A DNA stretch of 64,000 nucleotides from Phyllosticta citribraziliensis (GCF_038025025.1 NW_027117339.1:124001-188000), one strand, 5' to 3'. Shown: positions 25,558 through 38,728, counted from the stretch's first letter. Notes: generated by a model from the letters alone, not told the origin. Numbers and translations: made by a program.

Positions 25558-27075
25558 ATGGCCTCTCCCCCGAGCAGCGAGAAAAAGGGCCCTGCTTCCA
25601 AGCTGGCCCAGAGCGTAGACTTGGATGGACACAACTTGCCCCCCAGCCCGGCCCCGAGCAGCCCCCACAATGGCAGGAAATATGCCCTGGCGACGGAGCT
25701 GGTGTACACAGAAGGAAACGATCAGTACAACTCGAGTAGCATGCCCATTTACCAGGTATATTCTCTACGCCACCGAGCGTCGGCGGTCAGAAAATCAGGG
25801 ACAAAATATTGATGACTCAAACAGACCGCGACCTTCAAGCAAGACTCTGGCAGCGGCGGCGGTGAGTATGACTACACGCGCTCCGGAAACCCCACACGAT
25901 CGCACCTCGAGCGTCACCTGGCCAAGATTATGAGCGCCCGGCGCGCCCTCGTCGTCTCTTCCGGCATGGGCGCTCTGGATGTGATTACGCGCATGCTGCG
26001 GCCCGGCGACGAGGTTGTGACTGGCGACGACCTGTACGGCGGAACGAACCGACTTCTCAAGTACCTGTCCACTCACGGGGGCATCATTGTGCACCACGTC
26101 GACACGACGGACCCGGAAACCGTCAAGGCCGTCATTGGTCCCAAGACGACCATGGTTCTCCTCGAAACGCCCACAAACCCGCTCATCAAGGTCGTCGACA
26201 TTCCAACCATTGCGTCGGCGGTGCACACGGCCAACCCGGCTGCCCTTGTGGCCGTTGATAACACGATGCTCTCCCCCATGTTGTTGAACCCCCTCGACAT
26301 GGGCGCCGACATTGTCTACGAATCTGGCACCAAGTACCTATCTGGCCACCACGATGTGATGGCTGGCGTGCTCGCCGTCAACGATTCCGCAATCGGCGAC
26401 AAGCTATTCTTCACAATCAACGCATCCGGCTGCGGTCTGGCGCCGTTCGACTCGTGGCTGCTGATGCGCGGCATCAAGACGCTGGGCGTGCGCATGGAAA
26501 AGCAGCAATCCAACGCCCAGCGCATCGCCGAGTTCCTGCAAAACGAGGCCGGCTTCCGCGTCCGCTACCCGGGCCTCAAGTCGCACCCGCAATACGACCT
26601 GCACTGGAGCATGGCGCGGGGCGCAGGCGCCGTGCTGTCCTTTGAGACGGGCAACGTCGACGTCTCGGAGCGCATCGTCGAGAGCGCGCGGCTGTGGGCC
26701 ATCAGCGTCAGCTTTGGCTGCGTCAACTCGCTGATTTCCATGCCGTGTCGCATGAGCCACGCCAGCATCGACGCGAAGACGCGTGCCGAGCGCAACATGC
26801 CCGAAGACCTGATTCGCCTGTGCGTCGGCATCGAAGACCCCGAGGATCTGATTGACGACTTGAAGAGAGCGGTGCGTCTCCCTTTTTACATCCTTGTCTG
26901 ATTGTAGTGCTAATACTTGGTGCAGCTCGTCCAAGCCGGCGCCGTCAAGGTCACGCTCAACGGCATCCGCGCCCTCGACGCAAACGAGGCTGCCGTCGAG
27001 AGCGACGTCGCAGCCGGCCAACAGATTGCGGCCGACGGCTTCAAGGAGCCCGAGGCCGCGGGCACGTCGCAGTAG
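25558..27075 (+). CDS. Cystathionine beta-lyase (PLP-dependent Cys/Met metabolism family; MetG/Str3-like)
   Basis: YDYTRSGNPTR, LETPTNP, VDNT, ESGTKYLSGHHD PLP-lysine motif; introns 25756-25824 and 26872-26925. Confidence 0.92.
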
Positions 27076-27559
27076 GCCATTTCCCTTCCACATCGAGCAG
27101 TCTTTGGCCCATGCAGACGCGACTACGGCATCTGGCCAGCCGTTGATTGCAAAGAGAGTTGCTGAGGACGTCGGTCGTCCGGCAGGCTGGCATGCGGCAG
27201 GCAGCAGGAGGCAGCTACAGAGCTAGTGCCGCTTCCGCTCTGGTGGGTGGTGCTGTCTGAGAAAGTGCTTGGCCGTCTCGACCGACATCATTCAAAAAAG
27301 TGCCCCTCTTAAAAACGAAATCTTTCCATGACGCGGAAATGGCTCGCGTGGGTGGCGTGGTGGCTGCCACCGGATAGCAGCCGCAGCAGCAGCAGCAGCA
27401 GAGATGGTGCCACCGGAAACATCATCAAACAGTTTGACGTATGTCCGTGTGCGCGGTCAAGACGGGACGCGGGTCGCGGGTGCGGTGGACAGATGGATAC
27501 GGCGAATGGCGTGAACGCATTACTTGACATTCCACAATTTACACGACATGATCTCTTCC

Positions 27560-27628
27560 CCCCTTTTTCCTTTTTCCTTTTTCCTTTTTCCTTTTTCCTT
27601 TTTCCTTCTTCCTTCTTCCTTTTCCCAT
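27560..27628. repeat. (TTTTTCC)n heptamer microsatellite
   Basis: Direct tandem units downstream of the lyase gene. Confidence 0.8.
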
Positions 27629-28352
27629 CTACATCGATCCCTGTGGCGTGGCATCAAACAAGCTGGGCAAACAGGCAGAAAAGACGGCAGGCAGGCAGGC
27701 ACAAGGAGGGAAGAAGGTAGGCGCTAGAGGGAAGACGCGTTTACCTGTGAAATGGGTGGGTGGGTGAATTGAGGCGCGGCGAGGCGAGGCGTCTAGATAA
27801 GCAAATGGAGGATTTATTTTGTGCTTGTGGCTGGGCTGCGTTAGGGGGGGATGAGTGGTGTGGCGTGGCGCGCTGTATCTGCTGTATTTGCTTGCTGTAT
27901 CTATATCTACTATACTCGCTGTGTATATATGAACGGATGTAATAGATGTGGGCCAAGCATCGGTTGTTCGACCGTATCTTCTTCGCGCCCGCCTGCCTAG
28001 TCTTTCCTTTTCCTTCACGTGGCGTACCGTGTTTTCCTGCTTGGAAGTTTTCTGGCCGGCCGCTGGAGAAACGACAAGGTGTCTAGAGAAGAGTAGGGAA
28101 GAGAAGAGTAGGGAACAAAAGAGAAGAGAAGAGAAGGTCCAGTTCTCCCTTAATATGAAGTTTTAGAGACCTACCACCCGTCCGGAGATCACGCAGGATC
28201 CCCTTATCCTATCCCCTCATCCCATCTCCCCATACCAAAAAACGCCAGACGGCATAGTCTCCCTTTAGTCTTCCTCGCCCCTTTTCTTCTCTCACTTACT
28301 CCTCTCACTTACTCCTCTCACCACTAAAGCCTCCTCAGATCCAACGCTAGAA

Positions 28353-29236
28353 TCAAGCTGTCTTGACGTGATCTGTGACCTGGAAGAGGTCAAGCTCGCG
28401 GCAGAGAAGTGGCACAAGTTCAATCGGCATACACCTGCTGTGCTTCTTCTCAAGCTTCTCCTTGATTAGAACATGCATGTCTTGGTGGACATTGCCCTTC
28501 AGTTTGTCCATGAGCTTGACCGGGCAATTTCCATGTTGGGCGCCGACTCTTTCCAGCCAGCCGTCGAGGGAGGACTGGCCACCGGGCCGTTGATCGTTCT
28601 GAGGCACCGTGTCGGTGGCAGACTTGGCCGCTGAGATGATGAGGCTGCTGGGAATATGAGGCCGCTGGGAACATGAGGCCGCTGGGAACACGAGGCCGCT
28701 GGGAACACGAGGTCACTGGGAACATGAGGCCGCTGGGAACATGAGGTCGCTGGGAACACGAGGCCGCTGGGAACATGAAGCTGCTAGGAACATGAGGCCG
28801 CTGGGAACATGAGGTCGCTGGGAATATGAGGTCGCTGGGAACATGAGGTCACTAGGAACATGAGGTCGCTGACGTCCTTAATCGGCAGGTACCGATCATC
28901 TCGCGCCTCGGACTCCTCGTCAAATACCATGGCGAAGAGGTTGCGCAAGCGCGAGTTGGATCTGCGATAGTCCGTCGGTCTGCCCCAGGAAAGACCCAGG
29001 GTCTTCAGTCCAGGTAAGAGCTTCTTGCCCTTCAACGGGTTGCTTTGTAACCTTCTGGTACTAGTTGGACCATTGAACATCTTCAGCAGGTAGCTGGATG
29101 CCCGCCTCTCACGGCTGATCCAGATTGAATCATCGCCGGCGGTCATCCTGATCCGTCGTGGGTTTTCGACGAACTCCACGCTGATGTTCTTGTTTTCGAA
29201 CCTGCCTTTGAAGGTCTTGATCTCGAGTCCGGCCAT
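28353..29236 (-). pseudogene. Orphan gene copy A, interrupted by a 17-bp VNTR
   Basis: N-part MAGLEIK...NPLKGKKLLPGLKTLG and C-part ...SLDGWLERVGAQHGNCPVKLMDKLKG... lie in different frames on either side of the array; both parts align by eye with copy B. Confidence 0.7.
28641..28871. repeat. 17-bp minisatellite, 13 units plus a partial, consensus GAGGYCGCTGGGAACAT
   Basis: Units read directly with exact 17-nt period from 28641. Confidence 0.97.
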
Positions 29237-29299
29237 TATTAGACAAGTTAGTATGGGGAAGTAAGAATAAGGTTGAAGATTATTTAATATGGGTGGAAG

Positions 29300-29600
29300 G
29301 CGGAGAACCTAACACTTTAGGAGAAGATACGGGGGGTAGAGAACTAGTTATCTAAGGGGAACGCACAAGAGGTGGAGAACTAGACACTTTAGGAGAAGAT
29401 ACGGGAGAGGTAGAGAACTAGTTATCTAAGGGGAACACACAGGAGGTGGAGAACTAGCTACTTATAGGGAACACATAGGAGGCAGAGAAGAAGGCCTTTC
29501 TAGAGAAGGTATAGGAGATAGAGAAGTGGAACTTGAAGGAGAACACATAGGAGCCGGAGAACTAGTTACTCCCAGAGAACATGCGGGAGGCGGAGAACGT
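29300..29600. repeat. Degenerate 18/36-bp minisatellite with GRGAAS core
   Basis: GAGAAC at 29303, 29339, 29375, 29413, 29449, 29557, 29593, with GAGAAG/GGGAAC at the intervening half-periods. Confidence 0.85.
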
Positions 29601-30512
29601 CGACCAGGACGCCGCACATCTGCTTCGGCTTCGGCTCATACTTCTCGGAGCGGCGACCGGAGGCGGCTTTAGCGATCAGGTGGGTCTCGTAATCGGCCAT
29701 GATGACCGGCATGAATACTGTCTTGAAGACGTCGTTGAAAGACGTCTCGTCTCTGGTCATGTCTGGGCGACCAATCGAAAGCGGGTTGTCGCCCATCGGC
29801 TTCTCGACAACGGCATCCTCTTCTTTCTGACCGGCGACAAACTCGCCGTGGTCCCGCTTCCGGCCTCTGGTCTTCGGCTTGGTCTTGGGGCAGTCGGGGT
29901 AATCGCCCTGCACCCATGCCGTGAAGACCACGGTGTTGTCGTGGTCGGCAGCGATGAGTCTCATCTCGCCAAGGAGCTGCTCCAGCGCGTCGTCTGACAT
30001 TTGACGTCCGTGTTGCTCTTCCAGCTTGGCCTTCAGCCTGGGCTTCATGGCGTCAGGCACGTCGCCCTTGCGGGCATCCATCATGGTGATGGGAGAATTG
30101 CCGGCCGTTGCCAGCCAAGGCGCGAGCGTGTGGTTGCCCGGAGGCGGCGGCGGAGGCTGAGCACCAGGCGGAGGGGGCGGGAGAGGCTCGGGCTCATCGT
30201 TGCGCTCATGGTGGGCTCACCGAACATCTGGATCCAGACTTGCCGCATCGTGTTATAGCCTTTTACGGTGTCGATCGAACGGTTGAGCGTTACGCCCAGC
30301 GCCTGGAGGTGCGGCACGAGCGTGTAACCCTTCATGGGGTTCTTTTCCATTCGGGTGATGGACTCGGCACCAAAATAAATGTACGGCTATGGCTTGCCGT
30401 TGCGCTGCATGGTGATGAACATGAAGTGACCTTCTTCGGTGAACTTCATCCGCTTGGATTGGCGGATGCCCTCCATGGGCGGGTTGTCCCGTTTCTCGAC
30501 GTAGTTGGCCAT
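29566..30512 (-). pseudogene. Orphan gene copy B (paralog of copy A) with a premature stop and a frameshift
   Basis: MANYVEKRDNPP...NGKP*PYIYFGAESITRMEKNPMKG (TAG at 30387-30389); frameshift near 30210 before HERNDEPEPLPPPPP...TLAPWLATAGNSPITMMDARKG. Confidence 0.72.
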
Positions 30513-30574
30513 ACTGTCAGGAGAAAAGCTGGAGGAGAGCCTGAGGCGGGATATCAGTAACTGCAGCTGCTAAT

Positions 30575-30740
30575 GGAGATCTAGGTTCAAGAAGAGGAGA
30601 AGTGCCCGCTTACGGAGAACACGTAGGAGCTAGAGAAGGCCATAGCTCGCAGAGATCTAGATTCGAGAAGAGGAGAAGCGCCGACTTATCGAGAACACGT
30701 AGGAGGTAGAGAAGGCTGGCATGGCCCATGGAGAACATGT
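30575..30740. repeat. Two ~76-bp direct repeats with GAGAAC/GAGAAG cores between divergent ORFs
   Basis: GAGATCTAG..GAAGAGGAGAAG..CTTA..GAGAACACGTAGGAG.TAGAGAAGGC at ~30575 and ~30651. Confidence 0.85.
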
Positions 30741-30871
30741 CAGACACAGCGTGGGATAACCATGTAAGGACTCAATAGACTGCCGTGTTCTAGCATTGGA
30801 TCCGAGGAGGCTTTAGGGGCAAGACGACGAAGCCAGAGAGGAAGAGGGCGAGGAAGACGAAGAAGAAGACA

Positions 30872-31471
30872 ATGCCATCTGGCCACCATAGCACCTCGAG
30901 CAGGCCCCACAAGAGGGCCAAGCACGATTCAGAAAAACGCCACGTCCTCGAAGACCTCGTATACAATTCACTCACACCAGTGGTTGACGGCGAGCTCGAG
31001 AAGCTCAGACTTGTCCAGGAGGCGACAGGCGATTTCCTTAGTCCACTACAGTTGGACTTTGGAGCCCTTGTTGGTGAGCTCCAAACCATCATCAAGGAAC
31101 GCCAACAATTTGCGAAAAAGACTGGAGACTTTGCGGGCGCCTTTAAGGACGTCGAAGCCATCACCACGACGCTTGCTCAGTGTTGGGCTGAGAAGGCTAG
31201 AATCAGGAGATCCTTAATGCTCTCCGGATGGGGTGACAGCTCTCCGGAACTTTCCCTTAAAGGAGAACTAAATGTTCTCCTCTCTAGAGAGAGCGCCAGT
31301 TCTCCGGAACTTCCCCTTCAGGGAGAACTAGGTGTTCTCTTCTCTAGAGAGAGCGCCAGTTCTCCAGAGCTATCCCTTAAGGGAGAACTAGTTGTTCTCT
31401 TCTCTAGAGAGAGTGCCAGTTCTCCACAACTTTCTTTCAAAGGAGAACTAGACCTTCTCTCCTCTAGATAG
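30872..31471 (+). CDS. Hypothetical protein, basic N-terminus, helical core, C-terminal 20-aa repeats
   Basis: Intact 199-aa ATG-started ORF; RPHKRAK NLS-like patch; SSPELSLKGEL.VL.SRESA-type unit x4. Confidence 0.5.
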   Translation: MPSGHHSTSSRPHKRAKHDSEKRHVLEDLVYNSLTPVVDGELEKLRLVQEATGDFLSPLQLDFGALVGELQTIIKERQQFAKKTGDFAGAFKDVEAITTTLAQCWAEKARIRRSLMLSGWGDSSPELSLKGELNVLLSRESASSPELPLQGELGVLFSRESASSPELSLKGELVVLFSRESASSPQLSFKGELDLLSSR

Positions 31472-31476
31472 AGCAC
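31237..31476. repeat. 60-bp tandem repeat x4, internally palindromic
   Basis: Exact 60-nt period over four sequence lines; units contain AGTTCTCC-N16-GGAGAACT, GAGAAC-N5-GTTCTC and TCTCTAGAGA. Confidence 0.95.
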
Positions 31477-32324
31477 TATTTCCTAAGACGCAAAATTTTG
31501 CCGTCGCTAGTTGCGTAAAAGAGGAAGAAGAGACGCCGGAGCTTTTTTAAGACTGCGCCGTGTAGTGTTATCCTCACCCATGTGTGGCATCATTCTGGGA
31601 TCCTTGCTGCCGGCAAGAAGATTCGCAAACGAGAATGCAGGTGGCTCAGTGCGTGGTGACGACTGCGGCCCCTTCCCCTTTGCTGGTACCTATTCCTTGC
31701 TTTGATTCTTTTGGGGCGACATTATGGTCTTTGCCGAGGCGCCCGAACTGGAGTGCTGCACCGGGATGAGCGGACATTTCCATGGCCGATACGCGGCATT
31801 TTACTTCTTCTTCTTCTTTTCTTTCTTCATTCGATTTTAGAGAGCGACATTCTACGCTTCGCAGAACCACACGAGATGGGATGATAAGAGATGAGCGGGC
31901 GATTCGGTGGTCGACATGCGGCAAAAATCCATTTTTTTCTGATTTATTTTCTGGTCCCTGCAAAGTAGCTAGCACTCTACATTTGCCTCTGCCTTCAAGT
32001 GCAACCTCAGGTGGCTGTAGTTTTCAGATGTGTTAAGACAGGCAAAGGACTTTTAGAAAGAAAATGTCTTGAATAGTGACGGAAGAGCATCAAAAGTGCC
32101 ATTTTCCCGAACGCATTGCGCTGAAATTGCCAGTCACAGCGTGGAGAACTCGTTGATTCGGGCGGAGTGCGGACAAGGAGCATTCGACCGACGTTGCGCA
32201 GCGCGGCGAGGAGCGTTCAAGCCGCAGCGCAAAAGAAGACAGGGAGTTCTTGAGCTTTGTCGGGTCCAATGCCCAGGATCTGCGAGTGGGATTGTGAGCG
32301 GTTGCACGCCCCGACCTCTGCATT

Positions 32325-32831
32325 ATGCTCAGCGACCGTCCCAGCCAGTAGGAACTCGACCCTTTCGAGGTCACCGTAAGTTGATCGTTAGAACGTCAGA
32401 GACGAATAAAGCTGAGTACCGGTCTAGCACGAGGCCCCCTCCCACGGAACACTCCTCACCGAGCAAAAGAAGCGCACCACCAACACCGCCATCCTGGCCA
32501 TCAATATCAAGGCCGAGACGTTCAAGATGGAGACGCTCGTAAGTTTTGTTGCCAGACTTCGAGAAGATACTAAATTATCTCGCAGGACCAGATTGCGCTC
32601 TCGAGGCTTCTGGACATGAAGGATGTTCTGGACAAGCTGGTCTTGGAGACTGGTATTCATCAGCATTGCTTTGGCGAGCTGGGCGGCATTCTCAATGTCG
32701 CCGCAACCAGTGACGTTCCTGACGCCAGCGGCTGTGACATCAAGGAGGCTCCCAGGGGAAGCTTTAGGACGTACCTGAGGGGCCTTCATTGCAGACATAT
32801 ACTCTGCGATCAAGAATCCAGACTAAGATAG
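32325..32831 (+). pseudogene. Three-exon orphan gene with a premature TAG in exon 1
   Basis: ATG 32325, TAG 32349-32351; GTAAGT..TAG intron 32376-32426 and GTAAGT..CAG intron 32539-32585 splice in frame to HEAPSHG...METL|DQIALSRLLDMKDVLDKL...SRLR*. Confidence 0.6.
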
Positions 32832-33248
32832 TGGATTAAGCTGCACTCTCAAAGCCATCTGAGAAAGTACCAACTGAAAATCTGAAATCGCAGGGCGAAG
32901 AGGGGAAAACAAAAAGGAGAAGCCCTTTCTTTGACCCTTCTCTGGCAGATCCGCCAGCGCTCTACATCTTGCCTTTCCGATAATCAAGCTAAAATCCACA
33001 ACAAAGAGCTGTTCTGGTGGTCGCCGCATGTTGACATGAAATTTGCAAATACAAAAATCAGACTGGCGAGCGGAAACTGTTGGAAAACAATACAATATAA
33101 ACGAGAGGAAGGAGAGCAGTTTGTCAGGGCCGGCAGCGCAAAAGCAGAGCGGAGCCCAACAAGAAGGTATGATCGGATTGTGCTCCACAGTCTGGAAGTG
33201 TAATCCCCAAGCCAGCCCACGCGTGGTGAGGGTTACCAGACTGGGAAC

Positions 33249-33850
33249 CTAGTCCTCATCTTTGTCCCAACAGCCGTACAAAGACAAATGTGCCTCGAAG
33301 TCCTGGCTGGTGGCAAAGGCCTTGCCACACGAGCACTCCCAGTACGCGACTTCGACCGTGCGGAGGTGCTTGACGTGCTGCAGCCACTTGTCGTGGCTGC
33401 ATGCCTTCTTGTCCCAGAATTTGCCACAGCTGTGGCACTTGATGGCCGTATCTGGCGATGGGAGATTGGCGAGCGCGGTGAAGAAGGGCTCGCAATGTGA
33501 TTCGATGCCCAAGGATCGTGCCATGGACTTGGCATCATTGATCGACGCCAGCCACCATGTTGATCTCCCGCTCCTGATCGCGTGCGCCGATGGGTAGTCG
33601 GCCTTCAGTTGGGCTTGAACCGTCCTAGAGTGACCTGCAAACTTTTGGCCAGAAGGAGAGTGGAGATATGAAACGAAGAAGTCGCAATGCTTCAACTCCC
33701 CCTTCAGGCGGATAGTCTGGCGGTAGTCGCTGTTGTATCGGAGGGCGTGGTAGTTTCTGTTCTTTGAAATGATTGGTTTCCTTTGCTGATAGGGTCTGTT
33801 CTCGCCATCCTCCACGTTCTCACCGTGATCGTTGGTGTCGTCGAGGAGGG
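33249..33850 (-). CDS. KilA-N/APSES-like domain plus Cys/His zinc-finger protein, copy 1 (5' end uncertain)
   Basis: WWLASINDAKSMARSLGI resembles the APSES terminal W.PL..A..LA...G helix; CHSC-x17-HVKH and CSC..H..C fingers; aligns with copy 2. Confidence 0.55.
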
Positions 33851-33859
33851 AGGGAGGGA

Positions 33860-34440
33860 AGGGGGGGTTGGAGCAGGGGAGAGTAGAGAGGGAGGGAGAG
33901 AAGAGGATCGAGTGTGTATGCAAGGAGCATTCATCTGGTGAGGCGTATGCGGAAGGCTTTTAATGGCTTCATCGCCCTCATTATCCTGCTCAGAGTCCCC
34001 GGCCTAGAACAGTCGGGGGAGAGGGGGGAGGGGGAGGAGAGAGAAGAGAGAAAAGAGAAAGAAACAGCGTATATGTGCAAGGAGCATTCATCTGCTAAGG
34101 TGCCTGCGGAAGACTTTTGATAAAGCCATCGCGCTTGACATCCTGCTCGGAGTCCCTGTCCAGGAGAGTCGGGGGAGAGAGGAGAGAGAGTCTGTGTGCA
34201 TGGAGCATTCGTCTGCTGGGGTGTCTGCGGAAGGCATTTAATGGCGTCATCTCCCTCATGATCCCGCTCGGAGTCCCCTACCCAGGACAGGAGGGGGAGG
34301 GGGAGAGAGGAGAGAGGAGGGTGAAAAGAGAAAGAAACAGCGTGTGTGTGCAAGGAGCATTCGTCTGCTGGGGTGTCTGCGGCAGGCATTTAATGGCGTC
34401 ATCTCCCTCATAGTCCTGCTCGGAGTCCCCTGTCCAGGAT
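33860..34440. repeat. Four 120-160 bp tandem modules (GA-rich tract plus conserved ~75-bp core with GGAGCATTC)
   Basis: Cores TGCAAGGAGCATTC.TCTG...TGCGGAAG...TCCTGCTCGGAGTCCC anchored at 33924, 34081, 34202, 34354; minus-strand reading DSEQDYEGDDAIKCLPQTPQQTNAPC repeats. Confidence 0.9.
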
Positions 34441-35490
34441 AGTTGGATGGTGCAGAAACACGCATCCAAGATGCTGGGCTTTCTGCCTGCAGCTTGAATG
34501 CTCCCTGTTACCCCCCGCCGGAATCCTCGGGCAAGACGATCGAGACCCGGTTCCAGTCATAAACGCGTCCCCGCATCGACATTCGCGGTAAGCGAGTTCT
34601 TCCGGTGCAAATCTACGGTCGTGTTGAATGTGCCTTGTCCAGTTCTTGAAAGGCATTTTTGTCTTGTCCCAGCTCAGGCGACATTGACCGCATCGTATTT
34701 TCTGGTCGGCAGCAGGACGATTGGCGACTGCTTGAAAAAAGTGTACACATTGGCTTAGTATACCAAGCTTCTCGGCATACGTACGGGCATCCTGAAGAGG
34801 TAACAGGATTATCGACTGCGTGCCCTTCTTGAGCAGGAAGCGCTGAGGGAAATCCTGCTCAAGCTGTTGTCTGTCGACATCAGCTGCTGAAATTCCAGCC
34901 ATCTTCCACATGAAGGTGGCATAGCAATATCCTTCCTCAATGTGGGCAATCAATCGCTTTGTTGTCGGAGGATCGCTGGAAAGCCTCATGTATATGTTGC
35001 TGGGGTTTTGGTAGACGAGAGGTTTCGGGGGTTCACCACCGCTCGTGGTGCGCTCTTCGATACGTTGGGTGTTTACCTGGGAATCTAACAGCTCGTCCAG
35101 CTCCTTGTCGTTGTATTGGGCGGTGACTTTGTCTTCAGCAGCAAGTGCTGCTGACCTCCGGGCCCTCTGTTCATATCTCGTCACTTCTGGTTGGACGGTG
35201 GCTTTCCTCTTCCGCCTTGGCCTTTTGCTCGCGGGTTCCGTTGAGTCAATGGGTTGCGTAGGCAGGACGAGCTGTTCTGCTTCCTGGACCTGGGCTGCCG
35301 GTGGTGGGATAGCACTTTGTTTGGCGGCTTGGTCTCGTCTCTGGGGCGCTTCACATGCCCGATCAATTTGCTCTAGAGCAGTGTGTAGCTCTTCTTCCTG
35401 CTCCGATGCGTAGTTACGGATGAATAATCTTCGTGAGGTCAGAAACCTCCCGGCTCCTCCTCGCTGGGGATCCAGTGGACTGTCATATTT
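34408..35490 (-). CDS. KilA-N/APSES-like domain plus zinc-finger protein, copy 2 (ends uncertain)
   Basis: EGYCYATFMWKMAGIS and LLPLQDARTYAEKLGI match the APSES ..NATQILKVAG and WIPL..AR.LA...GV pattern; CGQC..HIQH and CRC; KRPRRKRK NLS-like patch. Confidence 0.6.
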   Translation of the reverse strand, partial: KYDSPLDPQRGGAGRFLTSRRLFIRNYASEQEEELHTALEQIDRACEAPQRRDQAAKQSAIPPPAAQVQEAEQLVLPTQPIDSTEPASKRPRRKRKATVQPEVTRYEQRARRSAALAAEDKVTAQYNDKELDELLDSQVNTQRIEERTTSGGEPPKPLVYQNPSNIYMRLSSDPPTTKRLIAHIEEGYCYATFMWKMAGISAADVDRQQLEQDFPQRFLLKKGTQSIILLPLQDARTYAEKLGILSQCVHFFQAVANRPAADQKIRCGQCRLSWDKTKMPFKNWTRHIQHDRRFAPEELAYRECRCGDAFMTGTGSRSSCPRIPAGGNREHSSCRQKAQHLGCVFLHHPTILDRGLRAGL

Positions 35491-36200
35491 ATGGTGGGAG
35501 GGAGGCAGATTAGGGAGAGAGAGGAGGAGAGAGGGAGGGAGAGAGAGAGAGAGAGAGTGTGTGTGTGTGTGTTTAGGGAGCATTCATCCGCGTATGCGCT
35601 GGACAGGATTCGGGGTAGCAGTGGAGTAAAGCCGCCGCGCAGAGCTTGCAGGCTTTTCATCTTTCTGGCAGGAGCTTGAACGCTCCCTGTCACGGGGCGC
35701 CACACGGATTGAATGATTCTTGAACACTACTCTCTTTCAAGCACGAAGGCTTCCTGTAAGTACGAGCATCGTCGTAGCGTAAACATGTGAACGTATAAAC
35801 CTCCGATCTTGCAGAATCCTGCAGCTTCGCGAAGGATATTGTGTCGCCTCTAGGCCTAGAGGCGTCTGCCGTCCAGCTAGAGATCCAACGGCAAGGATTT
35901 CTTCGCTTAGTTTGTCGAGGCGGGAGAAACGTGATCATTTGAACTATCCATTCCCGACGATCAAATCGAATGTGGCGAGCTCGCAGAGGTGTTGATATGT
36001 CCCTTGTGTGAAGACTGTGGCAAACGAAAAAGCGGGAACAATTGAACAATGGCGACGATTTGTCGAAAAGTTCAGGGGCTCAGCCATAATGATTGTCAAT
36101 GACGAGGTTCTCTTCACGAAGATGGATGGTTCTGAGAGACCGGGGACTTCTATAGTCCTTGAGATATCGCCGATTCGAATAGCTCGCGAGCCGAACTGGA

Positions 36201-36560
36201 TCAATTCGAAGGGTAGCACTTGTTCCACCGCGGCTGTCCCTCTACACTGTCCTGTACATTCTGACAGCGGCGGGAGCATTCGTGCGGTTGAAGAGGTGCG
36301 TCTGGGGAGCATTCAAGCTCTGTCTCGCTCTGTCTCGCAACAGTGGACATCAGGGCGTAGTAGTTCCCATTCTTCGAAATGATTGGCTTGCCACGTTGGT
36401 GGGGTCTACCCTCCTCCTCTTGGAATTCTTCATCATCAATGCTGGTGTTTTCGTTGCCTGGATCAAATGGGTCATCACTATCATCCCCGATGCCAAGTAG
36501 CTCGTCCTCTCCAGTGGCCTCATACTGGTTTGCAGTCTGCTGTTGTGCCACTAAAGCAGC
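36201..36560 (-). pseudogene. Truncated third copy of the KilA-N-like family
   Basis: GRPHQRGKPIISKNGNYYAL vs copy 1 NRPYQQRKPIISKNRNYHAL, also similar at DNA level; similarity stops after this; same upstream GA-tract/GGAGCGTTC module. Confidence 0.6.
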
Positions 36561-37630
36561 AGCTCTGGTAGCCCTGCGGTTGGTTGGGAGAGAGAGAGAG
36601 AGAGAGTTTGTGTGTGTCCAGGGAGCGTTCGTCCAGTTGAAGGGTAATGCCTCTGCTGTATGATGCCCTGTAGGCCAAGTGACTCGTCCTATCTGGTGGG
36701 CTTGTACTGATCTTCGTAGGTAGGGTGTATTCCGTGGCTGCGCGCTTCTGTTTTTGGCGTGGATCTTTGCAGCTGTAGCGGCAGTCTGGTTGCCCTGCGG
36801 TTGGTTGGTGTATCTCCTGGGTGTCTTTAGTACCAGGCGTAGAGAGGTCGGGATAAGGAGGAGTAGCGTTGCTAAGAGTTGTATCTTGACGCCTCCTTTT
36901 GCTGTCTGCGGCTTGGATTTGGGTCCGGGCCGGGAGAGATAGCGTGACTTGAGTCTGTCGAGGGCTCAAAAGTGAGCCGCCAGGGAGTATTATGCGCTGG
37001 ATGGGTGCCCTTTGCTGCTTCGAAAATTTCGCGGCTTCTCCAAGCCCGGAATTACTCTGCCATGTGGGTTCCAGATCTCGAATCTCGAATGCTCCTCCCG
37101 CGTCCACCGTGGGAACAAACGGAAAAACCCCCCTGTACGCCTTGTCGGCTCTCGGCTGCTTCCTGGCCATTCCAGTATTTACCAGCGGAGCATCCCTGGT
37201 AAAGAGGTTCTCCTGGAATAGGCATTTCATCCACAACGATCTCCGTCCCCTGTGGTAGTGTTCGATGGACCACGCCGAGGGCATGTCAGGCACTCGCACT
37301 CCTGGACTCCTTGTGGCTTTTCCCATTCATTGGATGACTTTGGGTCCCTTGTTCGTTTTCTGGACATGCGAAGATATCGAGGATGACCAAAAAGGAATTG
37401 AGTGAGTTTTTGTTTTTGTCCGGTCCCCAGGGTATGCGAGTCTACGATCCGAGCCATGGGAAAGTCGTCAAGTGAGCCAGGGTTCATCAAACCCATCCAC
37501 AACACAAGAACCAACCCTCCAAACATCAACAGCGAGCAAATCAACAAGCACAACAACCTTACCCCAACAGCCGCCCTCGCTCTCTCACAAGCCGAGGGCC
37601 GCGCAGGTGGTCAAGGCGCCGCCAGACACG

Positions 37631-37638
37631 TATAAAAG
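37631..37638 (+). promoter_or_regulatory. TATA box upstream of the 157-bp duplication
   Basis: TATAAAAG followed by a CT-rich stretch. Confidence 0.4.
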
Positions 37639-37678
37639 GGCGATTCTCCTCCGCCCAACTCCTCTCCTTTGCAACAAC

Positions 37679-37992
37679 AACATGATCAGCCGCGTGAAGG
37701 TCCCCAGACCTGATGGCTGTGACACGCGGGTCAGGGCTGCCTCCCCCAAAGCCTGGGCGGGTGGGAAACCCCAGCGACGTTGGTGCCGTACCCGGGCGGC
37801 ACTGACGCGCTGGGGGGCATAATGCTGTGAATGTGAACATGATCAGCCGCGTGAGAGTCGTCGGACTTGATGGCTGTGACACGCGGGTCAGGGCTGCCTC
37901 CCCCAAAGCCCGGGCGGGTGGGAAACCCCAGTGATGTTGGTGCCGTACCCGGGCGGCATCGACAAGCTGGGGGGTACAATGCTGTGAATGTG
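37679..37992 (+). repeat. 2 x 157-bp tandem duplication, candidate structured RNA
   Basis: Copies start at 37679 and 37836 and differ at 15 positions; several self-complementary stems. Confidence 0.9.
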
Positions 37993-38728
37993 CTTGCTTG
38001 CTTGACTTGACCTTGTGCGTTTGGAGGTGGCGACGCGAGGGCGATGGAGGAGAGAGTGTGAGAGGGATGGAGCGGAGTCTCGAAGCTCGAAGGCAGCTCC
38101 TCTGATCGTATGTCTTGAGCGGATGTGCTTTGAGTTGGTCGGTGGTCGAGGGATTCGAGCAACAGGTGGACTCTGGTATTCAACAGACGTTAGGGAGCGT
38201 TTCTCCTCCGCCTTCAGACTTTCCATGCTCTTGTCACCTGGCAAATCAGTCCACGGCCGCAGCGTCAATCGCTTGTTCAACGACTCTTCATCTTCGCTTC
38301 AGAAAGTACTGCTCGAGGCCTGACTCCGTGATGACTACAGGCCCACACCGACTGACTGAGAAGCAGGGTCGCATTCGATGAGAAACCCCCATAAATTGAC
38401 GGCCATCCGCTCACAGATACACGAAACGTCTTGCGTCGGTCGTTGTCTCCCGCTTTTGTAGACGGCCGGGATGGCGTGCTCAGTGCGTTGCCGGTGAGGC
38501 GGGAGCGGGTCCGCTGCTCGATTCAGCGAGGCGGAGAGCTCTGGCCGCCGTCACCAACAACGTCATTTTTCATGCGTATGGTGAGAAGGCAGGAAGCCAG
38601 GTCATTCGCATCGCATTCCTTGATTTGGCGACTTCGATTGGTGCGTTGATTTATAGGCACGTCGGCCGGTCATTCTGAGATGTTGAGCCAAAGCTATCTG
38701 CGTGCGCTTGCTGCATCAACTCAACACC

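Follow-up and report, generated by a model that had tools for sequence, protein, structure and literature searches.

What kind of genes occupy positions 33,249 to 36,560 of a 64-kb window (the whole stretch of DNA analysed here) from Phyllosticta citribraziliensis, a Dothideomycete, and where did they come from? A first-pass annotation had described this locus as a tandem family of divergent genes, in which a KilA-N/APSES-like domain is coupled to zinc fingers, and had proposed that the array may be derived from a mobile element or a virus. The analysis presented here suggests that the locus is probably a tandem cluster of a fast-diverging, Phyllosticta-restricted family of putative APSES-like plus zinc-finger nuclear DNA-binding proteins, which has been duplicated locally and whose copies are partly decayed.

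Paralogous copies and the predicted fold of their N-terminal domain

We found that only two of the three copies are full paralogues and that the third is a short remnant, all of them lying on the minus strand of the window, whose ORFs (open reading frames) are fragmented in the manner of intron-containing genes. Copy 1 (33249..33959) is a stop-to-stop ORF of 236 aa, which contains a complete APSES-like domain and both zinc fingers, and copy 2 (34408..35583) is an ATG-to-stop ORF of 391 aa, comprising a linker, the APSES-like domain, finger 1 and the first two Cys residues of finger 2. When all six-frame pieces of the window were searched with a hidden Markov model (HMM) of the family, copies 1 and 2 were recovered with expectation values (E) of 1.2e-75 and 1e-76, respectively. 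A single BLASTP comparison of the two gave 56 identical residues out of 183 (31%, E 3e-27), and their paralogy was also detected by tblastn against the whole window (E 5e-25 and 8e-24). The alignment of copies 1 and 2 claimed in the first-pass annotation was thus borne out, and all the strings quoted there, including WDK, HxxH and AY.EC.CG.AF, which are common to both copies, were present in the sequence where stated.

The remnant, copy 3 (36351..36479), lies within the ORF 36201-36965 and consists of an acidic stretch and GKPIISKN. This ORF has 21 of 44 residues around GKPIISKN in common with copy 1 (E 4e-8), and the DNA of the two copies is 77% identical over 56 nt (33742-33797 versus 36352-36407), in agreement with the earlier statement that copy 3 keeps the N-terminal KPIISKN motif only. 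The family HMM gave no signal for copy 3 (E 35) and nothing elsewhere in the window, and no remains of the domain or the fingers were found when they were sought in all frames of copy 3 with the same HMM. The description of the locus as a tandem family accordingly holds for the two full paralogues, and not for copy 3, which is a remnant only. A short string, DDARTYRK, was also seen near position 35760, and could be there by chance.

The fold of the N-terminal domain was predicted by template-free AlphaFold modelling of copy 2 (model 1; 2-row alignment, overall predicted local distance difference test score (pLDDT) of 56) and copy 1 (model 2; 10-row alignment, pLDDT 76.3). In copy 1, the predicted APSES/KilA-N-fold domain maps to 33468..33776 on the minus strand (model residues 8-110) and is composed of six strands and four helices with a pLDDT of 75-91. 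In copy 2, the predicted domain maps to 34723..35025 on the same strand, with a model core at pLDDT 71-84 and a Foldseek probability of 0.93 for Mbp1. Both models were compared with 48,161 chains in a structure scan independent of Foldseek, and the top Foldseek chains were re-aligned separately. In the scan, model 2 matched the two Mbp1 chains first, with Z-scores of 10.6 (root-mean-square deviation (rmsd) 2.6 Å, 89 of 99 residues aligned) and 9.6, followed by Bqt4 (Z 8.5 and 8.0), the N-domain of granulovirus Orf22 (Z 6.0) and Swi6-N (Z 4.3); the next chain beyond these six best was at Z 3.8. Similarly, model 1 matched Mbp1 at Z 8.5 (rmsd 2.7 Å, 77 residues aligned) and 8.0, followed by Bqt4 at Z 5.8 and 5.5; the best unrelated chain reached Z 4.2. 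Among the re-aligned Foldseek chains, the DNA-bound PCG2 of Magnaporthe aligned with model 2 over 100 of its 113 residues (Z 10.6), and the ten best were Mbp1, PCG2, Bqt4, the granulovirus Orf22 N-domain and Swi6-N, ordinary winged-helix proteins reaching Z <=3.8. The top eight rows of the Foldseek search of model 2 against the PDB were all Mbp1, Bqt4 or PCG2 (E 4.7e-3 to 6.3e-2, probability 0.93-1.00), and a Foldseek search of the viral structure library BFVD placed poxvirus N1R/p28 and proteins named KilA-N on top (E 1e-2 to 2e-2, probability 1.00). The models built from the two paralogues converge, their match extends over almost all of the Mbp1/PCG2 domain, and unrelated folds are set apart by a clear drop in score; on these grounds it is very probable that the N-terminal ~100 aa adopt the APSES/KilA-N fold. 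We consider it likely, with somewhat less confidence, that the domain is also a homologous member of the KilA-N superfamily. The fold was assigned from the VIA Z-scores and from the agreement among the top-ranking entries.

Putative zinc fingers, relatives and the proposed duplicated unit

The APSES-like domain is followed by two sets of Cys and His residues. In copy 1, finger 1 (33357..33443, minus strand) has the form C-x2-C-x16-H-x2-H (C121, C124, H141 and H144 of a 182-aa piece), and finger 2 (33270..33341, minus strand) has the form C-x-C-x12-H-x5-C (C155, C157, H170 and C176). Finger 1 of copy 2 (34612..34698, minus strand) has the same C-x2-C-x16-H-x2-H spacing, and its ligands C118, C121, H138 and H141 are invariant between copies 1 and 2. 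Across the family the spacing of finger 1 is C-x2-C-x15-17-H-x2-H and that of finger 2 is C-x-C-x12-H-x5-C; all four ligands of finger 1 are present in 8/8 aligned sequences, and the ligands C, C, H and C of finger 2 are kept in 7/7, 7/7, 7/8 and 6/6, respectively. The C-terminus of model 2 shows two short strands and a helix per finger (finger 1 helix, residues 135-147; pLDDT 57-78), and resembles known fingers weakly, namely those of BCL11A and CTCF at Z 2.0-2.9 and those of Kaiso and CTCF in Foldseek (E 0.1-0.7, probability <=0.35). A weak alignment of the family profile with tandem C2H2 fingers was likewise obtained in the PDB profile search (E 0.4-0.8), and Pfam zf-C2H2 scored below threshold on the window ORFs and their relatives (10.1-11.6 bits against a cut-off of 25.2; E 0.84 for finger 2 of copy 1). 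The ligand order fits two sequential fingers in the predicted structure, of which the first, with its long spacer, is C2H2-like and the second is C2HC. The pieces comprising domain and fingers are basic (pI 9.1 and 9.2), and the linker of copy 2 contains the stretch KRPRRKRK (35203..35226, minus strand), which looks like a putative nuclear-localisation signal and appears as KRKRK in the P. citrichinensis relative.

Word-indexed searches covering 5.8 billion proteins (2 matches among 323 candidates, 4 among 2654 and, in a search that returned the window's own model only, 1 among 8000 scored) returned, as relatives with a named source, P0002 and P0005 of P. citrichinensis and P0003 and P0012 of P. 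capitalensis, in addition to the window's own deposited gene model, P0001. As judged from these matches, the named relatives are confined to three Phyllosticta species. An exhaustive HMMER profile search of 1.84 billion representatives, a library that carries no source names, gave 11 proteins at E<=1e-3. The N-terminal domain was present in five of them (P0001-P0005), and three (P0006, P0007 and P0008) had the two-finger module without the APSES-like domain, at the ends of low-complexity Q/A/P-rich proteins. The remaining three were set aside: P0009 (2448 aa of repeats) matches profile positions 20-82 only, P0010 has repeated C2HC fingers that match finger 2 only, and P0011 (475 aa, with ~57-aa repeats containing FEDARAYV..LGL) matches positions 73-103 only, a DA..A..LGI helix, at E 7e-4. 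The two-finger module therefore appears to be an independent evolutionary unit, and since it occurs alone in P0006-P0008, the family seems to have been assembled by joining two modules of independent origin. P0003 (221 aa) and P0012 (246 aa) begin with Met and combine the domain with the two fingers, suggesting that a compact stand-alone gene is the normal form of the family.

The copies are accompanied by repeats. Four units of ~121-157 nt are arrayed in tandem between copies 2 and 1 (33856..34446). Each carries GAATGCTCC and, after it, a CA/CT-rich tract; this repeat head is also found upstream of copy 2, and a form with one mismatch upstream of copy 3. The 9-mer GAATGCTCC occurs 10 times in the window against 0.69 expected, a count reached by 0/100 shuffles. 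All 10 exact copies fall within 32177..37095 (8 on the minus strand and 2 on the plus strand), with zero in the other 59 kb. One-mismatch GAACGCTCC variants are found at 32218(-), 36630(-) and 35678(+), and a longer subtype, AGCTTGAAYGCTCCC, at 36314(-), 32218(-), 34496(+) and 35678(+). The excess of GAATGCTCC is in part a by-product of the duplication of the gene units with their 5' ends, which does not account for the inverted copies and the copies with diverged flanks; the motif may be a relic of these 5' ends or a cis-element. We propose that the cluster may have grown by local tandem duplication, through unequal crossing-over, of a unit of ~1.1-1.2 kb, which would comprise the gene together with the repeat head, the GAATGCTCC motif and a CT-rich tract. 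On either side of the locus there are further tandem repeats, at 37679-37992 (157 nt x 2, 90% matches) and 30576-30716 (76 nt x 1.9, 87% matches). In addition, a 60-nt unit is repeated four times (84% matches) at 31237-31474, in a plus-strand ORF (30794-31468); it encodes a ~20-aa repeat, SSPEL.LKGEL.VL.SRESA, without a Pfam match.

A full protein of the family would have three parts: a disordered linker with a basic stretch resembling a nuclear-localisation signal, a ~100-aa APSES/KilA-N winged-helix/beta-barrel domain, predicted to be closest to the DNA-binding domains of Mbp1 and PCG2, and two beta-beta-alpha fingers. Such a protein might enter the nucleus by means of the basic stretch and contact DNA both with the two fingers and with the winged-helix face of its APSES-like domain, and in this way regulate transcription. 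We infer that a nuclear DNA-binding transcription regulator is the most likely function. An APSES-like fold alone is not proof of DNA binding, and the KilA-N domain of Bqt4, according to the excerpted text of PMC10375492, binds DNA moderately and unspecifically and mediates protein contacts. By analogy with Bqt4, the family may alternatively have a role in protein-protein contacts.

State of the copies and alternative explanations

Several features of the locus speak against a functional family and raise the question of whether all three copies are dead, being relics of a family that once functioned. Copy 1 has no in-frame ATG upstream of the domain; the ATGs near it, within the GAATGCTCC motif, belong to the two remaining frames and precede a C-rich tract at about 33860-33880. 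An intron of 38 nt joining the motif ATG to the frame of copy 1 was considered and rejected, as it is too short and would remove the stretch conserved with copy 3. The start ATG of copy 2, the sole in-frame ATG upstream of its domain, lies within the GAATGCTCC motif at 35583. After the C-x-C of finger 2, copy 2 runs into the inter-copy repeat head, so that the final His and Cys are missing, and copy 3 is reduced to a remnant of 44 aa. In P0002 and P0005, both from P. citrichinensis, the similarity breaks off partway, which decay or poor gene models could explain, and the locus is situated inside ~12 kb without a Pfam match. The family may thus be decaying rather than functional. However, neither the 236-aa frame of copy 1 nor the 391-aa ORF of copy 2 has internal stops, and the zinc ligands are kept family-wide. 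Comparison with the P. citrichinensis relative shows 45 of 57 identical residues (79%) where the domain begins, against 58 of 130 alignment columns (45%) in the upstream linker; this contrast suggests past constraint on the domain. Moreover, P0004 ends after finger 1 too, and a one-finger form may be a viable variant. On balance, we consider it rather unlikely that all the copies are dead, and prefer the reading of a locally duplicated family with partial decay.

The first-pass annotation had suggested that the array may originate from an element or a virus. We therefore considered a recent capture of the family from a virus or a mobile element, as an event separate from the ancient acquisition of SBF/APSES by fungi. 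The phyletic spread is very narrow, with three Phyllosticta species as the named sources. The Pfam KilA-N model, reported in the excerpted text of PMC4862756 to be specific for fungal SBF and APSES proteins, is blank here. The layout is like that of poxvirus N1R/p28, in which a KilA-N domain is combined with a zinc-binding RING (PMC3185573, part of the text), and the locus combines tandem amplification with many repeats. The surroundings of the locus point the other way. Of the 83 ORFs of at least 170 aa in the window, 48 were scanned with Pfam, shorter ORFs overlapping longer ones being left out. The neighbouring genes belong to housekeeping families, among them xanthine/uracil permease, SH3-PX protein, SAC3, Vps36, adenylosuccinate lyase, Hsp70, a Cys/Met pyridoxal-phosphate (PLP) enzyme, methyltransferase, HIT, FAD oxidase, CFEM, and M28 and M3 peptidases. 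The ORFs scanned in the 64-kb window showed no sign of a transposase, an integrase, a capsid protein or any further hallmark of viruses or mobile elements. The GC content at the locus (0.53-0.55) is not distinctive as compared with the 0.52-0.62 found across the window. The best structural matches are fungal (Z 10.6), as against Z 6.0 for the viral one, and the profile search among 1.84 billion representatives, in a library without names, gave no match from a source named as viral, all the named relatives being from Phyllosticta. A viral or mobile-element origin is thus unsupported, and a recent capture appears improbable. Between ~26.4 and 38.7 kb, no ORF tested had a Pfam match, including 21 further ORFs (122-272 aa, E<=0.1; five of them already covered by the first scan); this ~12-kb stretch (~26400-38700) forms an orphan, repeat-rich island between the genes for the Cys/Met-metabolism PLP enzyme (~25.8-26.9 kb) and the methyltransferase (38.76-39.66 kb), in an otherwise housekeeping region.

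The deposited annotation offers another explanation, in which the three copies are exons of one gene encoding P0001, a protein of 563 aa. The P0001 model is 100% identical to the window at 37284-36835 and 36551-36411, continues through copy 2 (~35406-34780) and copy 1 (~33776-33252), all on the minus strand, and contains a part that is 100% identical to the protein of the copy 2 ORF; the lack of a start codon of its own in copy 1 is also compatible with a single gene. When mapped on the window, the model implies introns of ~283, ~1000 and ~1000 nt. Introns of ~1 kb are atypical of filamentous fungi, and two of them would be unusual for a filamentous ascomycete. In addition, P0001 links the N-terminus of copy 3 to the first half of copy 2, and this half to most of copy 1, and in doing so it cuts the predicted domain of copy 2 mid-fold after LQDART and discards the last helices and the fingers. 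The stand-alone genes of 221-246 aa in P. capitalensis also argue against a single composite gene. A one-gene structure is thus very unlikely, and the deposited P0001 model is, with high probability, a prediction artefact, a chimera of three units. The deposited annotation, which records one 563-aa "C2H2-type domain-containing protein", deserves revisiting, as it is probably a fusion of three units.

It could also be argued that the APSES match arose spuriously from a low-information AlphaFold model or reflects no more than a generic winged-helix arrangement, and that the family is an unrelated orphan zinc-finger protein. The sequence-level searches and the quality of the models weigh against an APSES-like family. 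Pfam KilA-N (PF04383) gave no row at E<=10 for the three window ORFs or nine relatives including P0001, a blank that excludes a clear match only, as the HMMER filters drop most matches above ~0.1. Likewise, PHROGs gave no KilA-N match at E<=10 for six proteins, the PDB profile search at E<=10 returned two C2H2 chains only and no KilA-N/APSES, and the ESM Atlas feature search gave no usable match to KilA-N/APSES. The alignments behind both models are shallow (2 and 10 rows), and neither model reached a Foldseek E<=1e-3 against the PDB (best 4.7e-3) or BFVD. According to the note of the structure tool, models without a clear Foldseek match often reach a best Z of 7-8 through a chance arrangement. 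The identity to Mbp1/PCG2 in the structural alignments was 9-14% for the copy-1 model and 17-18% for the copy-2 model, within an overall range of 8-18%. On the other hand, Mbp1 ranked first in two models built from different paralogues and alignments, the aligned portion of Mbp1 and PCG2 includes the N-terminal strands and not just the helix-turn-helix, and ordinary winged-helix proteins stayed well behind the ten best entries. An artefact of this kind therefore seems most improbable. The KilA-N/APSES-like assignment made from the sequence thus stands at the level of the predicted fold, where similarity is clear, and finds no counterpart at the level of Pfam, PHROGs, PDB profiles and the ESM Atlas; the absence of both profile and structural similarity, which had been named beforehand as the outcome that would count against it, was seen for the profiles alone.

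The boldest explanation, in which the family would be a fifth fungal KilA-N-fold class beside SBF/MBF, APSES, Xbp1 and Bqt4, acquired by a separate viral or mobile capture in or near Phyllosticta and fused to a fungal two-finger module, with GAATGCTCC as its own binding site and a self-regulating or self-amplifying cluster, is a speculation to which we attach little probability.

Comparison with known fungal and viral proteins

The SMRC proteins, which include Mbp1 and PCG2, carry ankyrin repeats. No ankyrin family was found by Pfam at E<=10 in the three window ORFs or nine relatives, whose proteins end 70-80 aa beyond the APSES-like domain. Excerpts of the literature describe the fungal KilA-N/APSES factors as a small conserved set that goes back to a single ancient, probably viral, acquisition (PMC10375492, PMC4862756). 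Four fungal subfamilies are distinguished, SMRC (Swi4/6, Mbp1, Res), APSES, Xbp1 and Bqt4, and the five KilA-N proteins of a Fusarium genome are called typical of Pezizomycotina (PMC10375492, in part). The argument for monophyly of fungal SBF and APSES proteins, through a single transfer that was probably viral, used the Pfam KilA-N model as its detector (PMC4862756, in part). If the predicted fold is correct, surveys made with this model would undercount the superfamily, which would appear to keep producing new architectures, and the present family may offer a way to test whether fungi acquired the fold on more than one occasion. That the copies are partly decayed limits the weight of this finding.

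Classical C2H2 fingers (PF00096) have the spacing C-x2-4-C-x12-H-x3-5-H. Finger 2 of the family resembles them in its pattern C..C...F.....(L/F)..H. It differs in its C-x-C and in ending in Cys (C2HC), and finger 1 differs in its spacer of 15-17 residues and its H-x2-H; both the classical spacing and the 25.2-bit cut-off of PF00096 are missed. In the literature searched, as judged by titles and the openings of abstracts, we found no description of a fungal fusion of KilA-N with C2H2 or other zinc fingers.

The poxvirus N1R/p28 proteins resemble the family in layout, with a KilA-N-fold domain at the N-terminus and a zinc-binding module after it (PMC3185573, in part). Their module is a cross-braced RING, in contrast to the two sequential beta-beta-alpha fingers with four ligands each predicted here; there is no sequence similarity between the two, and the genes of the family are located in a cellular genome among housekeeping genes. 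No significant Pfam match to a RING domain was obtained in nine proteins of the family, the best being a non-significant zf-RING_4 match (E 1.1) in one of the nine, P0003.

Bqt4/MtgA formed the second-best structural group (Z 7.7-8.5, 95-98 residues aligned). Proteins of the Bqt4 type have a coiled coil and a C-terminal transmembrane helix of their own (PMC10375492, in part), whereas the family described here ends in two putative zinc fingers. The closest likeness is to Mbp1 and PCG2, with which the family shares the predicted fold of the N-terminal ~100 aa, the position of the domain on the N-terminal side of the structured region, and the basic character of the piece. The family differs from them in having two zinc fingers after the domain and no ankyrin repeats, in its small size (221-391 aa), in its restriction to one genus and in the blank Pfam KilA-N result. 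The view that the locus does not encode a classical APSES factor is supported, as the architecture differs from that of the classical APSES, Swi4/Mbp1, Xbp1 and Bqt4 factors. Taken together, these comparisons suggest that the family is a so far hidden branch, specific to its lineage, of a transcription-factor fold that has been well studied, and that it lacks the accessory domains of the four known subfamilies and has two putative zinc fingers in addition.

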